This document shows positions 25,665 to 30,331 of a stretch of DNA of 64,000 nt, piece by piece. The position numbers were made by a program, and so were the translations under genes. This DNA is from Desulfosoma sp. (lineage in GTDB: Bacteria; Desulfobacterota; Syntrophobacteria; Syntrophobacterales; DSM-9756). A model generated the notes under the pieces. That model did no database searches. It was not told where the DNA came from and saw nothing but the letters and a program-made list of their open reading frames with translations. The DNA is taken from assembly GCA_037481835.1 (NCBI GenBank), contig JBBFKW010000001.1, positions 64,001 through 128,000 of the forward strand, read 5' to 3'. Positions within the stretch are counted from its first letter, which is position 1. The number at the start of each line of letters is the position of its first letter.

Positions 25665-25848
25665 CGCTTTCTCCTTCTTGGTGGTGTGGCCGATCGGATG
25701 GTTCGGTGCGAAAAATCCGGCGTGAGTTTTCGTCTGCCCCGTGCCTGTGCCTCACCTCCTTTCCCCGAATTCGTTTGGGACGCACTCGAAGGGTTCCATC
25801 GGCAGGGCCCGCACCAAACTTGAAGGATTTTTTCAACGCGGATTCTTC

Positions 25849-25905
25849 CTCCGCGCCTTGGTGTGAGATTTTTTTTCTCACGCCAAGGCGCAAAGGCGCA
25901 AAGAG
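25849..25905. repeat. CGCAAAGG-family inverted-repeat hairpin downstream of the GxxExxY gene
   Basis: cgccttggtgtgaga (25854-25868) pairs with tctcacgccaaggcg; right arm tctcacgccaaggcgcaaaggcgcaaagag at 25876-25905. Confidence 0.85.
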
Positions 25906-25935
25906 GCCAAGAGAAAATCGCTTTCGCGCGAAAAC

Positions 25936-26328
25936 CTAACTCTCCAGGCGGTTCACCACCCGGAAAATTCCGTCTTTCAGGAGCACCGCCCCGAAGTTGA
26001 TGAGAAGTCCCAGGCGCAGGTCCGCCAGCCGAAGGTAGGTGAGCAGCTGCTTGTGGTGGACCGGCTGGACCGTCTCCACCGATTTCAGCTCCACGATCAC
26101 CTTCTGTTCCACCACCAGGTCGGCTCGAAAGGCGTCAGCAAGCACCAGCTCGTCGTAGCGGATGGCGATGGGCACCTCACTTTGGACGGAAAGCCCGCGC
26201 TTTTTGAGCTCATGGGCCAAGACGGCCTGGTAGACCGATTCCAAAAGGCCGGGGCCCAAAGCTCGGTGCACCTGCAGCGCGGCATCCACCACCACTTTGG
26301 CGATGTCGTTTTCGTGAAGACCCCTCAT
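25936..26328 (-). CDS. GxxExxY protein (PD-(D/E)XK-like nuclease fold)
   Basis: 130 aa; LGPGLLESVY, RADLVVE...VELKS, QLLTYL, GLLINF. Confidence 0.92.
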   Translation of the reverse strand: MRGLHENDIAKVVVDAALQVHRALGPGLLESVYQAVLAHELKKRGLSVQSEVPIAIRYDELVLADAFRADLVVEQKVIVELKSVETVQPVHHKQLLTYLRLADLRLGLLINFGAVLLKDGIFRVVNRLES

Positions 26329-26343
26329 CCCCCAATTCCTTTC

Positions 26344-26408
26344 CTTTGCGCCTTTGCGCCTTTGCGTGAGATCTTATTTCTCACGCCAAGGCGCAAAGGC
26401 GCAAAGAG
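26344..26408. repeat. CGCAAAGG-family 28-bp hairpin upstream of the GxxExxY gene
   Basis: Arms 26344-26371 and 26379-26406 are reverse complements with one mismatch; 26377-26408 is identical to 25874-25905. Confidence 0.9.
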
Positions 26409-26473
26409 AAAAACTCTTCAGGCGGTTCACCTCCTTCATGGCGTGACCGTCCCCGCGCCTCCGCGTGACCCCT

Positions 26474-27250
26474 TCAATGATCCGGGGAGGCGGCGCACAG
26501 GAGGATCTCCCTCAAGCTTCGGGAAATCCACAGCATCTTGGGGTTATCGGCGGGAAGCTTCCCCCGAAGGGCGTAGACGGCCCCTTCGGCCAGGCTCCCC
26601 CAGAGCTTGAGCATTTCGTTGTAGAGGATTTTTCGGTTTCGGAAAACGTAGGCGGGAACGGACGGGGACCCGTCGGTCACGGCATGGAGCGCGATGTCCA
26701 CGCCGGATCCCCAGGTGAGGGCTTTCAGCAGGAGGTAGGAGCGCGGGGCGTGGTAGGCGGAGGTCACCAGGATGACGCGCTTCAGGCCGTGATCCCGGAT
26801 GATCTCCCGGCAGAGGAGGGCGTTTTCGAAGGTGGTTCGGGCCCGGGGTTCGGGAAGAACCGCATCGGGCGGAAGGGGGCCGAATCTTTGGGCGTAAGCG
26901 CTAAGCTGCGCCGGGAGGGCGGGAGAAACGGCGATCTTCGGGGCGGCGCCGCTTCGAACGAGATCCCAGCCCGCTTGGATCCTCTTGGCGGCCCCGGCGA
27001 AAACGACCACGGCATCGGCCTTCCCGGGGACGTTCCCGATCCCGAGAAGGCTGACAAAGAGCGCCCCTTCCAGGGCGAAAAGCAGGGCGAGAATCCCGAG
27101 AAGCCGCCCGGCGGACAAAACCCCCGCCCGAAAAGCCCCGCCGCCTCTCTTCCTCTCACCCCAAATGAAGAGCCCCTCCTTTGCGCCTTGGCGTCTTTGC
27201 GCGAGGCCTTTTTTCTCCCGCCAAGCCGCCAAGCACGCCAAGAAAAGCAT
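26474..27250 (-). CDS. YdcF/ElyC/SanA family (DUF218) protein
   Basis: ADAVVVFAG, ARTTFENA, LVTSAYHAPR, E...K motifs; start uncertain because the N-terminus is repeat-derived. Confidence 0.8.
   Translation of the reverse strand: MLFLACLAAWREKKGLAQRRQGAKEGLFIWGERKRGGGAFRAGVLSAGRLLGILALLFALEGALFVSLLGIGNVPGKADAVVVFAGAAKRIQAGWDLVRSGAAPKIAVSPALPAQLSAYAQRFGPLPPDAVLPEPRARTTFENALLCREIIRDHGLKRVILVTSAYHAPRSYLLLKALTWGSGVDIALHAVTDGSPSVPAYVFRNRKILYNEMLKLWGSLAEGAVYALRGKLPADNPKMLWISRSLREILLCAASPDH
27179..27242. repeat. CGCAAAG/CGCCAAG-family repeat pair
   Basis: ctttgcgccttggcgtctttgcgcgaggcc (27179-27208, identical to 27438-27467) facing ctcccgccaagccgccaagcacgccaag (27215-27242). Confidence 0.85.
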
Positions 27251-27286
27251 TTTTTGTACTGCTGATCATCCCTGCGCGAACCCTTT

Positions 27287-28582
27287 CTACGCCGCCGCCT
27301 GAAAGCACCCGCGCACAATCCCGATGACCCGCTCCAAGTCGCCGGAGGTCATGGCCGTGCCGCTGGGCAAACAGAGTCCCCGCTCGAAGAGCCCCTCGGC
27401 CACCTCTCCCCTCACGACCCTGCAGGAATGGCCACCTCTTTGCGCCTTGGCGTCTTTGCGCGAGGCCCCAAAAACGGGTTGACAATGCATGGGCTTCCAC
27501 ACAGGCCGGGATTCGATGTTTTCTTTTTCCAGGGCGATTCGGATCTCTTCCCTGCTCACTCCGGCCCTTTCGGGATCCACGGTCATCACGGTGAGCCACC
27601 GGTTGCTGCGGCTCCAGTCGGGTTCCGGCATGAAGGTGATTCCCGGAAGATCGGACAGGGCTTCGCGGTACAAGTCGAAAATTTCCCGTCTCCGGCGCAC
27701 GCGCTCGTCCAGCACCCGTATCTGCCCGCGCCCGATGGCCGCCACGATGTTGCTCATGCGGTAGTTGTACCCGATGGTGCTGTGTTCGTAGTGAGGCGCC
27801 GGATCCCGCGCCTGTTGGCTCAGAAAGCGTGCGTATTCGATGAGTTCCGGGTCGTCGCTTGCGAGCATCCCGCCTCCCGAGGTGGTGATGATCTTATTCC
27901 CGTTGAAGGAAAAGACCGCCGCCTTCGCCCCCTTCCCGGCATGCATCCAGTCTGTGTGTCGCCTCAAGCCGCCAAGCCCGCCAAGTGAATTCTTCTCGAT
28001 TTGACCTTCACCCTTGGCGCCTTGGCGCCTTTGCGCGAGGTAATAGGCGCCCACGGCCTCGGCGGCATCCACCACCACCGGCACACCGTAGCGGTCGCAG
28101 ATCTCCAGGATCCGCGGCATGTTGCAGCACTGGCCGTAGAGGTCCGTCGGCACCACGGCCTTGGGAAGTTTCCCCGCCCGAGCGCAGCGCTCCAGTTCTT
28201 CTTCCAGAAGGTCCGGATCCATATTCCAGCTTTCCCGATCCGAATCGATAAAGACCGGCACGGCCCCCTGAAAGACGATGGGCGTCACGCTCCCGATGAA
28301 GGTGAGGGTTGAGGCAAAGACCTCGTCGCCCGGGCCCACCCCCAGGCACCGCAGGGCCAAATGCATGGCGGCGGTCCCGCTTGAGACCGCCGCGCACTGG
28401 CCGATTCCCGTATATTCGGCGAATTCGCGCTCAAAGGCGTCCACCATGGGCCCCAGCGGGGCGATGTAGTTGCTCTCGAAGGCCTCCTTTACGAACCGCA
28501 GCTCCTCTCCCCCCATGTGGGGAGGCGACAAAAAGAGCCGCGGCCATACCTTTTGATTTGAATTGGCATCAAATTTCTTCAC
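27287..28582 (-). CDS. DegT/DnrJ family sugar aminotransferase (PglE/EpsN-like) with two repeat-derived in-frame insertions
   Basis: LSPPHM, SSGTAAMHL, DAAE, SFNGNKIITTSGGG, GYNYRMSN, GLCLPSG. Confidence 0.92.
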   Translation of the reverse strand: MKKFDANSNQKVWPRLFLSPPHMGGEELRFVKEAFESNYIAPLGPMVDAFEREFAEYTGIGQCAAVSSGTAAMHLALRCLGVGPGDEVFASTLTFIGSVTPIVFQGAVPVFIDSDRESWNMDPDLLEEELERCARAGKLPKAVVPTDLYGQCCNMPRILEICDRYGVPVVVDAAEAVGAYYLAQRRQGAKGEGQIEKNSLGGLGGLRRHTDWMHAGKGAKAAVFSFNGNKIITTSGGGMLASDDPELIEYARFLSQQARDPAPHYEHSTIGYNYRMSNIVAAIGRGQIRVLDERVRRRREIFDLYREALSDLPGITFMPEPDWSRSNRWLTVMTVDPERAGVSREEIRIALEKENIESRPVWKPMHCQPVFGASRKDAKAQRGGHSCRVVRGEVAEGLFERGLCLPSGTAMTSGDLERVIGIVRGCFQAAA

Positions 28583-28591
28583 AGGCGATCC

Positions 28592-29107
28592 TTACGATCC
28601 TTGCCCAGCCCCCGGTTCCAAAGGCTTTGTTTTCGCAGGGACTCCCACAGCCACCGCCCCTGGCGGAACGTCGCGTGTCACAAAACTGTGAGCGCCCACC
28701 ACGGCGTTTTCCCCGATGGTCACCCCCGGCATGACGGTGGTATGGCTCCCCACACGGCATCCCTTCTTGAGGACCACCGGCCCGGCCTTGCCGTCTATGG
28801 TGGATACGGAATAAATGGAGCAGTGGGAGCCGATCTGGACTTCGTCCTCGATGGTCACGCCGCACTTGGCGTTGATATAGGTGAAGGCGCCGATGTCCGT
28901 TCTGTACCCAAGCCTGAAATTTTCCGTGTGTTGGACCATCCAGTTATAGACGGTAAGTTTCCCGTCTTCCACCACGGGATAAACCCAGGTGGAAAATCGA
29001 TCCCCCTGGTCATGAGAGGCTCCTGCGGAGGGCGCCGGCGCTCTATGAGGGCACTCGGGGGGGATGGAGATTTCTGGCGGGCACCCCCCCCCATGTTCCG
29101 GATTCAA
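28592..29107 (-). CDS. Hexapeptide-repeat acyltransferase
   Basis: Left-handed beta-helix repeats (VTIEDEVQIGSH, MPGVTIGENAVVGAHS, GVPAK); start uncertain. Confidence 0.8.
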   Translation of the reverse strand: MNPEHGGGCPPEISIPPECPHRAPAPSAGASHDQGDRFSTWVYPVVEDGKLTVYNWMVQHTENFRLGYRTDIGAFTYINAKCGVTIEDEVQIGSHCSIYSVSTIDGKAGPVVLKKGCRVGSHTTVMPGVTIGENAVVGAHSFVTRDVPPGAVAVGVPAKTKPLEPGAGQGS

Positions 29108-29711
29108 TGGATTTGGTTACGCACGCGCCGGCCCCGATGATCACATCGTCTCCGATGGTTAGAGGTTTTTCCCGGGTGCCGTTGATGAAGACGGCCCCCG
29201 TCCCTACATAAACCCGCTTTCCGAAGTGCACCCACCCGGACACATGGACCCCAGGGGCCAGGGTGGTGTAATCGCCCATGATCACGTCGTGGCCGACGGT
29301 GCAGTCCAGATTGATCTGCACATGCCGTCCCAGGGAGATGTTCACGGTGAGGATGGATCCGGCACAAATGATGGTGCCTTCGCCGTACTGGATCCACCGT
29401 GAGCGCTCCACCCGAGGGTGCACCAAAGTGGCGAAGCCCAATCCGGCTGCGGCCGCCTTGGCGGCCAGGGCCTCCCGAGTCCGAGGATTCCCCACCGCCA
29501 CAACGACTTCGGCATCGACGTATTTTGCCGCCGCCTCCTCCAAACCCACCACCGGGATCCCGTTCAGCACTGTGCCCCATCGGCTTTCATCGTCATCGAT
29601 GAAGCAGGCGGGCTCATAAAGGACTGCCTCGTCGCGGCACGATTCCACGAGCCATGCGACTTCACGGGCGAATCCCCCGGCCCCGTAGATGGCGATGCGC
29701 CGGCTCTTCAT
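29043..29711 (-). CDS. PglD/NeuD-family sugar acetyltransferase
   Basis: IYGAGGFAREV, TLVHP, TVGHD, hexapeptide repeats. Confidence 0.88.
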   Translation of the reverse strand: MKSRRIAIYGAGGFAREVAWLVESCRDEAVLYEPACFIDDDESRWGTVLNGIPVVGLEEAAAKYVDAEVVVAVGNPRTREALAAKAAAAGLGFATLVHPRVERSRWIQYGEGTIICAGSILTVNISLGRHVQINLDCTVGHDVIMGDYTTLAPGVHVSGWVHFGKRVYVGTGAVFINGTREKPLTIGDDVIIGAGACVTKSIESGTWGGVPARNLHPPRVPS

Positions 29712-30331
29712 CGTTTCATTCCCCCTGAGTTCCCTAGAAATTCTTCCATGGTCGCCTCCCCCGGCTGACTGATCCCTTCCCTTCGGAGCACCTTGACTAC
29801 CGTCATGAAGAGGATCTTGAGATCCAGCGCCAGGGACCAGTTGTCCACGTACCACACATCCAACTTGAACTTTTCTTCCCAGCTTAGGGCGTTTCGCCCG
29901 TTCACCTGGGCCCAGCCCGTGAGCCCCGGCTTGACCTCGTGCCTTCGCGCCTGCTCGGGCGTGTAGCGGTCGAGATATTGCATCAAGAGCGGACGGGGCC
30001 CGACCATGCTCATGTCGCCCTTCAAGACGTTGTAAAGTTCAGGCAGCTCGTCCAGGCTGGTGCTGCGAAGGAACCGACCAACGGATGTCAGACGCTCCGC
30101 GTCCGGAAGCAACCTCCCGTCGGGCCCCCGGGCATTGTTCATGGTCCGGAACTTGACAATGCGGAAGGGCCTTCCCCCCTTGCCCGGCCGAACCTGCGTG
30201 AAAAAGATCGGGGAGCCTTGGGTGACCCGAATCACCAACGCGATCAGCCACATCAGAGGCGAAACCGCCAAGAACCCGAGCCCCGCAACCGCAAGATCCA
30301 ACAGCCTCTTGTTCAACGCAACGCTCCACAC
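29708..30331 (-). CDS. Undecaprenyl-phosphate sugar phosphotransferase (PglC-like)
   Basis: KRLLD, KFRTM, SLDELPEL, GDMSMVGPRPLL, KPGLTGWAQVNGRN. Confidence 0.92.
   Translation of the reverse strand: MWSVALNKRLLDLAVAGLGFLAVSPLMWLIALVIRVTQGSPIFFTQVRPGKGGRPFRIVKFRTMNNARGPDGRLLPDAERLTSVGRFLRSTSLDELPELYNVLKGDMSMVGPRPLLMQYLDRYTPEQARRHEVKPGLTGWAQVNGRNALSWEEKFKLDVWYVDNWSLALDLKILFMTVVKVLRREGISQPGEATMEEFLGNSGGMKR

Follow-up and report, generated by a model that had tools for sequence, protein, structure and literature searches.

To our knowledge, selfish DNA lodged in frame inside enzymes is textbook matter for Rickettsia only. The Rickettsia palindromic elements (RPEs) are small palindromic repeats inserted in frame into unrelated enzyme genes, translated and tolerated by the fold (Ogata et al. 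[quoted passage not shown] We describe here a 64,000-nucleotide stretch of Desulfosoma sp. DNA (contig JBBFKW010000001.1, positions 64,001 to 128,000; "the window" in what follows) in which an intact gene for a PglE/DegT-type nucleotide-sugar aminotransferase, 431 aa long (27287..28582, minus strand), hosts repeat-bearing inserts at two sites. We think it probable that these two surface loops are long-lived nests, comparable to RPE sites, for the gene-less hairpin arms of cassettes that carry a GxxExxY nuclease-fold gene, and that the aminotransferase is a working PglE-type enzyme, both judged together as one explanation.

The likeness to RPEs is one of design and not of sequence comparison. 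In both cases small, dispersed palindromes lie in frame in protein-coding genes, at positions compatible with the fold, and an earlier note on this DNA, made from the sequence alone, was fair in naming RPEs as a precedent, as far as they are described in the relevant part of PMC10969869. The organism and the sequence differ, however, and so does the construction: tandem units of 7–9 nt are found here, against an RPE consensus of ~150 bp that codes for a single conserved peptide; throughout a clade of orthologues from many organisms the inserts stand at the same two sites, where different arm families form nested mosaics; and the arms also bracket a nuclease-fold gene. REP and REPIN sequences (repetitive extragenic palindromes) are short, imperfect, multi-copy palindromes, extragenic by definition, whose family-specific hairpins flank a Y1 (RAYT) transposase gene. 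Our repeats resemble them as many-copy, short, imperfect palindromes and in the flanking of a single small gene by family-specific hairpins, but the flanked gene is GxxExxY (PF13366), of the PD-(D/E)XK fold, and not a Y1 transposase, and the copies here are also translated. The intervening sequences of 23S rRNA are hairpin-bounded, some with an S23p/23S_rRNA_IVP open reading frame (ORF; PF05635), and are cut out. They share with our inserts the bounding hairpins with or without a small ORF, the few tolerant positions of a conserved gene, and the patchy occurrence in distant lineages; the host here is protein-coding, the insert is translated, and the family is PF13366 instead of PF05635, which has no match in this genome. 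Bacterial MITEs (Correia, Nezha and RUP), in the part of PMC10969869 given to them, are also gene-less and multicopy with inverted ends, occasionally fusing in frame with an ORF. Here, by contrast, no target-site duplication was seen, the intergenic DNA of the same-genus genomes being too diverged, a search for a transposase-bearing parent insertion sequence gave none, and the arm families are extremely diverse within one design. We found no description of GxxExxY cassettes or of an aminotransferase hotspot in the literature, subscription journals lying outside the search; in one paper GxxExxY stands as a domain label only, and another gives the family (PDDEXK_3/PF13366/TIGR04256) as one of unknown function with multiple transfers.

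The host protein clearly belongs to the DegT/DnrJ/EryC1/StrS family, having the PF01041 domain (312.3 bits against a cut-off of 19.8, residues 23–423; Pfam), the Schiff-base lysine and the aspartate that binds pyridoxal phosphate (PLP), and a fold type I model. Its closest solved relative is Campylobacter jejuni PglE (1o61, E 4.3e-90, 39% identity in a PDB search). The AlphaFold model, with a mean predicted local distance difference test score (pLDDT) of 80.5 and a predicted template-modelling score of 0.83, has the same fold: Foldseek matched it to PglE 4ztc at E 2e-36 and a TM score of 0.84 (normalised to target length). SFNGNK aligns with YSYNGNK of PglE, 4ztc being the K184A mutant at that lysine, and the catalytic K230 (SFNGNK) and D172 (in DAAE, also shared with PglE) are invariant across an alignment of 47 relatives.

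Insert lengths were measured as the DNA distance between conserved anchor peptides flanking each site, without gene calls, in 169 loci: the window, 80 from species-representative genomes, 80 from metagenomes and 8 from relatives. At site 1 (27944..28042, minus strand) the window gene has a variable segment of 99 nt and 33 aa, YLAQRRQGAKGEGQIEKNSLGGLGGLRRHTDWM, in place of a 12-nt Y-K-G-R loop, the length found in 149 of the 169 loci. At site 2 (27422..27469, minus strand) a segment of 48 nt, GASRKDAKAQRGGHSC, replaces a loop that spans 9–24 nt in 144 of the 163 loci measured (L038 was excluded as mis-anchored and five had no anchor). Because most orthologues have 12 nt and 9–24 nt at these positions, both segments are insertions relative to the aminotransferase family, as the earlier note had proposed. 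The alignment with PglE itself is gapped at both sites: where the window protein has 33 and 16 residues, PglE has 4 (site 1) and a short loop (site 2).

Both inserts are predicted to lie in loops, again in agreement with the earlier note: pLDDT falls below 50 at residues 187–208 (site 1) and 375–381 (site 2), while the rest of the model matches PglE, the only other long stretches below 50 being the N-terminus, 228–234 and 364–367. The inserts add new peptide sequence to the enzyme. The 33-aa peptide of site 1 gave no match at E ≤ 0.001 among 1.84 billion representative proteins, a query too short for that search to have power.

Five copies of one repeat family lie within 25848–28040 of the window, composed of the 8-nt units CGCAAAGG and CGCCAAGG in inverted arrays that form hairpins. 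Two hairpins, neither assigned a strand, flank the GxxExxY/PDDEXK_3 gene (130 aa, 25936..26328, minus strand; PF13366, E 6e-42), as had been noted: one on the side far from the aminotransferase (25848..25905; repeat families D1, I1 and I12), the other at 26344..26408, with 28-nt arms, 96% complementary, around a 7-nt loop (I3). A complete hairpin, likewise without strand (27178..27243; D1, D2 and I2), stands 43 nt 3' of the aminotransferase stop codon. Site 2 holds a single arm (27437..27467, minus strand; D2 and D4), in which the 30-mer 27438–27467, encoding ASRKDAKAQR, is identical to 27179–27208 of that hairpin, both by direct reading and through repeat families D2/D4. Site 1 holds an inverted pair, situated between the DAAE and SFNGNK motifs. 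Its arm toward the 5' end of the gene (28012..28040, minus strand; D2) consists of CTCGCG and CAAAGG/CGCCAAGG units, encodes LAQRRQGAK and matches the reference copy 27178–27206 at 93%; the arm toward the 3' end (27960..27985, minus strand; D8) consists of CTTGGCGG units, encodes LGGLGGLR and matches 27222–27242 at 95%. CGCCAAG units on one side face CTTGGCG/CTTTGCG units on the other, with the 26-nt spacer 27986–28011 as the loop. The folding energy of the 99-nt segment, taken as single-stranded DNA, is −24.9 kcal/mol, with z = −4.5 relative to shuffled sequences.

The repeats are commoner than chance would give. The window has 32 occurrences of CGCAAAG, where 13.6 are expected, and 34 of CGCCAAG, where 16.2 are expected, with none of 100 shuffles reaching either count; 12 matches of each are packed into the 2.2 kb between 25881 and 28035. 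At the gathering score Rfam has no match for the hairpins; resemblances below threshold, to plant and animal microRNA precursors only, are read as generic hairpin matches.

The same two sites are occupied widely. We compared the 120 best near-length homologues, all from other organisms and 57–74% identical, the named members being Deltaproteobacteria and Syntrophobacteraceae. Site 1 carries an insert of 10–95 aa in all 120, and site 2 one of 12–106 aa in 119, P0069 alone having a baseline of 3 aa. An exact four-residue word is shared with the window peptide at site 1 in 25 and at site 2 in 26 of these homologues, and 62 different five-residue words are present at both sites (k-mer comparison of the homologue sequences). 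Among the words are the pair QRRKGAK/FLGGLGGLAR, SEIRGQKS/TSDLRPLTSDL, KLATDPHRHTQT, NPQITQIT, QVEGLKAQGLRLKA, KIQNSKFKI and YDLPDLRGK; by eye, some 45–50 of 121 site 1 inserts start with a word of the CGCAAAG type. The inserts of the homologues are mosaics of a limited, repeat-derived vocabulary, sometimes nested: P0043 has an extra block of 20 residues between two arms that are adjacent in P0003, and P0104, P0015 and P0060 string several arm families together. At the DNA level, long unit-repeat hairpins of 7-nt units are found in L083 (192 nt, −36 kcal/mol), L012, L082, L086 and L157. Insert content turns over between lineages, different arm families taking the same places.

Since these 120 homologues in other organisms carry inserts there, occupancy of both sites is older than this genome. 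The idea in the earlier note that the repeats had spread locally from the GxxExxY gene is therefore at least qualified, if not reversed; its finding of inserts in the aminotransferase is real, and broader than it had supposed. As the occupancy is older than the genome, a recent local homogenisation, by conversion, or a duplication is the best reading of the perfect 30-mer that site 2 has in common with the hairpin at a distance of 259 nt.

A tree of the aminotransferase, calculated for 155 rows with the insert columns removed, places the window in a clade of 13 rows in which site 2 carries an insert in 13 and site 1 in 11; the two without, L084 and L087, have plain Y-K-D-G and Y-K-G-R loops. 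Inserts at site 1 also appear in genes from Verrucomicrobiota, Kiritimatiellia and Anaerolineales whose closest relatives have none. At least 8 changes of state at site 1 are required on this tree, and a topology that unites the 18 rows with an insert in a single clade is rejected, at a cost of 296 log-likelihood units (p of the approximately unbiased test 3.2e-6, IQ-TREE on a 68-row subset), the tested group having been chosen by the insert trait after the first tree had been seen. Site 1 has been gained or lost repeatedly, while site 2 in the window clade looks largely inherited.

The frame is kept at both sites in the window, where the ORF is uninterrupted as the earlier note had read it, and in 38 of 39 measurable inserts overall: by DNA anchors, 19 of 20 at site 1 and 19 of 19 at site 2 are a multiple of three in length and free of stops. 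Since frame is kept and stops are absent, and since excision from RNA would impose no such constraint, the DNA argues that the ribosome translates the inserts into disordered loop peptide. In assembled contigs of four DNA runs the in-gene arrays showed no variant in unit number and the inserts no variant in presence or absence, contigs being prone to hide rare variants; the window insert sequence was also found in two source-like runs, and a strain ~95% alike was gapless across site 1 in independent runs. One 625-nt contig of run X4, an independent hot-spring metagenome, joins 27178 directly to 27438; 259 nt are skipped, the final 50 aminotransferase codons among them. This joint reflects either a deletion that took place between the two copies of the 30-mer or a misjoin in the de Bruijn graph, exactly 30 letters being common to both sides; Logan assemblies use k = 31.

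The source of such arms is suggested by the GxxExxY genes. A 605-bp unit of hairpin, GxxExxY gene and hairpin (25853..26457, no strand) occurs twice in the genome, with 95% identity to contig C10:8738-9334, and an 89-nt piece of the YdcF-like gene described below (window 26813-26901) lies near the second copy, at C10:7068-7156, with 93% identity. Unit-repeat arms bracket all four GxxExxY genes of the genome and represent three unit families: two of CGCAAAGG, one of CGCAGAGG and one of GCACAGAG; the arms form terminal inverted repeats. Another 40 GxxExxY loci were taken from related genomes, and one of these was dropped because its downstream flank was missing; among the remaining 39, the inverted repeat between upstream and downstream flanks scored at least 14 in 33, whereas 20 shuffles of each never exceeded 13. 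Their arms are again built of 7–9-nt units: CGCAAAGG, CGCAGAGG, CACGAAGG, CACAGATT, CACGGATG, GACAGGATT and others. By hand translation, with no tool check, some of these units would encode peptide words of the aminotransferase inserts. Because the flanks of GxxExxY genes carry unit-repeat arms of this kind, the aminotransferase inserts are, as judged from their sequences, gene-less or one-armed arms of GxxExxY cassettes. The CGCAAAG family has ~19 loci in the genome (3.63 Mb in 38 contigs), two of them inside the aminotransferase.

In the favoured explanation only in-frame, stop-free inserts in two permissive loops would survive selection, and for this reason the same two sites would recur. 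A hairpin once resident would be remodelled in three ways: new elements would insert into or beside it, parts of it would be deleted, and copies outside the gene would convert it, the 30-mer being an example; the GxxExxY nuclease would be the obvious candidate for moving the arms. If this is right, an RPE-like phenomenon now extends to free-living, largely uncultured bacteria of several phyla, and goes beyond the RPE reports in the clade-wide occupancy of two loops, the repeated replacement by other arm families and the use of arms from a nuclease-gene cassette. The inserts would also form a natural series for asking what length of loop is tolerated by a compact PLP enzyme, would serve as a tractable model for the entry of new peptide into proteins, and would account for many of the strange low-complexity segments and divided gene calls met with in aminotransferases from metagenomes.

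A number of observations weigh against this explanation. Among 161 searched loci only three (the window, L012 and L085) have a GxxExxY gene close to that of the aminotransferase, in addition to genome G004. No other long ORF of the Desulfosoma genome has a clear mid-gene copy of the CGCAAAG family, and the aminotransferase was hit twice, for which insertion at random with subsequent selection offers no obvious explanation. No transposase linked to the arms was found in this genome: the sole match to PF01797 (Y1_Tnp), at C8:140941-141240, scores a weak 27.9 bits, and no hairpin of the contig lies closer to it than the one at 93900. When two solo hairpin loci were compared with three same-genus genomes, the flanking genes were 70–83% identical and the intergenic DNA was too diverged to reveal ends, a target-site duplication or an empty site. 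Many relatives have inserts with neither a hairpin nor recognisable units (e.g., L003, L004, L085 and L090), and for these it is position alone that points to a repeat origin. Finally, disrupted alleles at site 1 are not rare. L164 (G004:C308, 1369-1510), from a genome in the same family as the window genome, has a frame-breaking site 1 hairpin of 137 nt made of TTTTGAAT/CTCAAAA units, and a dispersed family that might lie behind it was sought in the G004 genome, where the unit proved to occur in that gene only. Its right arm consists of 3.5 copies of a 7-nt unit, so that the frame would be restored by the gain or loss of a single unit; the shifted product is represented by protein cluster P0188, with 21 members; and a GxxExxY gene lies 235 nt 3' of this aminotransferase (C308:7093-7431). 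Furthermore, the 120 best short homologues include 40 N-terminal halves that end in or just after site 1 and 44 C-terminal halves that start there. Many may be contigs broken at the repeat, and two pairs of N- and C-terminal halves lie on contigs of equal size, but in at least 6 of the 40 N-terminal halves the conserved block that follows is entered in the wrong frame.

Such alleles are what a contingency switch would leave, in which slipped-strand gain and loss of units toggles a surface-glycan gene by phase variation and the arrays are kept for their useful mutability. Units of 7–8 nt are not multiples of three, so one unit gained or lost shifts the frame; the frameshifts of L164 and P0188 fall right in the arrays, and the out-of-frame N-terminal halves are shifted past site 1; and the host gene and, in L049, its CapD-like neighbour belong to surface-polysaccharide synthesis. 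We nevertheless hold this to be improbable: the window arrays are short and imperfect, with 2–3 mutually differing units, only one of the 39 DNA-measured inserts is out of frame, long inserts in many lineages retain no tandem units, and the same arms stand between genes as well, where they could switch nothing; the missing unit-number variants in the contigs of the four runs count weakly in the same direction, given what contigs hide. Equally improbable, in our judgement, is ordinary expansion of a low-complexity loop, in which slippage during local replication would suffice, no element would be mobile or shared, and the extragenic resemblance would be coincidental or secondary. Both sites are disordered loops in which a change of length is cheap, the unit of the G004 insert occurs nowhere else in its genome, and several relatives have inserts without a hairpin and without 12-mers common to the rest of the locus; yet a perfect match of 30 nt ties site 2 to an extragenic hairpin, slippage does not produce the inverted-repeat architecture of site 1, the same unit families stand at GxxExxY flanks, and the same words recur at both sites and in unrelated lineages, in arrangements as nested as that of P0043 against P0003. 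That the inserts are removed from RNA like rRNA intervening sequences, or that the gene is a pseudogene or the assembly an artefact, seems to us very improbable indeed. The inserts are hairpins of the type cut by RNase III in rRNA intervening sequences, and one Logan contig does join 27178 to 27438, but a frame kept free of stops in 38 of 39 inserts is not needed if they are excised, the ORF and the catalytic residues are intact, the same sequence recurs in the two source-like runs and, without gaps over site 1, in the ~95% strain, and a joint with exactly 30 common letters may be a misjoin of the graph.

The alternative that we take most seriously, unlikely as we consider it, is a structure-directed landing pad: the cassettes would prefer hairpin DNA, or sequence like their own units, so that an occupied site keeps drawing arms. 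The mosaic and nested inserts, with new blocks between or beside arms of the CGCAAAG type (P0043, P0104, P0015 and P0060), speak for it, as do the 8–10 or more changes at site 1; the out-of-frame hairpin of G004 at the very same site speaks for arrival regardless of frame; the aminotransferase is the sole long ORF hit in the genome, and twice; and the conserved codons beside site 1, GGC GCN AAR (G-A-K), resemble a unit. On the other hand, independent site 1 inserts in L049, L115 and L157 lie in sequence without the G-A-K resemblance, no insertion event with defined ends was captured in the same-genus comparison, and tolerance alone can account for recurrence in a four-residue loop of a compact enzyme. 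More doubtful still is a combined version, in which the loops are landing pads for undescribed mobile cassettes that home to hairpins or their own units, with the GxxExxY nuclease in the autonomous form, and in which the arrays act as frame switches as well; if true, a selfish element would be building heritable, hypervariable and switchable loops inside enzymes in many phyla. We retain selective survival of gene-less arms in two permissive loops as the explanation that best fits the evidence.

As to the origin of the segment in this genome, three same-genus genomes were searched, and none yielded an orthologue of the aminotransferase (the best matches being paralogues, E 1e-25 to 1e-38), the YdcF gene or an intact GxxExxY gene (0, 0 and three fragments). 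An arm pattern of three CGCAAAG units matched 0 times in each of them, against 15 times here and 0 for the reversed control; five genomes from other genera of the family have 1–6 matches. Since none of these were found in the three, horizontal transfer probably brought in the segment with the aminotransferase together with the GxxExxY cassette and the CGCAAAG hairpins, after which the hairpins would have multiplied. The nearest named relatives of the aminotransferase gene are from Syntrophaceae and a delta proteobacterium.

The solo hairpins of the genome have a context of their own. At C2:262148, C3:145960, C5:47738, C8:93900, C9:72550 and C15:68225, and in reverse orientation at C2:151190, C3:164367 and C17:68730, a CGCAAAG hairpin is joined to a conserved block of ~60 nt (…gaaagcatcgtgagcggaaacggg…gtgggacac…), and in some of these another repeat follows, giving short ORFs of the …SLTPTY… kind; hairpin and block together look like a composite repeat. 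At C7:40424-40439 an ORF of 1237 aa includes, in frame, two units of CTTGGCGG (…RGRLGGLAWAR…), an array too short to show whether it is a relic of the CGCAAAG family.

A scan of 171 loci for tandem arrays of 7–10 nt within long ORFs, with a Pfam check, showed repeat-coded sequence in other genes as well. In L049:4923-6917 (+) a CapD/PglF-type dehydratase adjoining the aminotransferase has a repeat-coded insert of ~40 aa at residues 351–390, inside Polysacc_synt_2. In L085:5593-7215 (+) a GFO/IDH/MocA oxidoreductase and a hexapeptide acetyltransferase share one stop-free frame through a repeat-coded linker (residues 334–366), which may be a gene fusion by an intergenic hairpin.

The aminotransferase of the window lies in a surface-polysaccharide cluster, as judged by its same-strand neighbours: PglD-like acetyltransferases, a sugar transferase and a glycosyltransferase. 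On its 3' side is a DUF218/YdcF-like ORF (26474..27250, minus strand, longest frame; Pfam DUF218 at residues 79–192), the N-terminus of which the earlier note had called repeat-derived. That holds for the longest ORF, codons 3–24 of which are covered by the hairpin 27178–27243; the true start is uncertain, DUF218 beginning at residue 79 only, and probably lies downstream of the hairpin, although no close orthologue that would fix it was found among 12 relatives. One homologue of the aminotransferase, P0098 (592 aa), has an N-terminal extension of 163 residues; a PIN domain (PF01850) is annotated for the protein, which is named as a transaminase fused to a nucleic-acid-binding protein. In the window, the two hexapeptide acetyltransferase ORFs at 28592-29107 and 29043-29855 overlap, and an inverted G7 … C9 run (cactcgggggggatggagatttctggcgggcaccccccccc) is found there, at 29050-29100.

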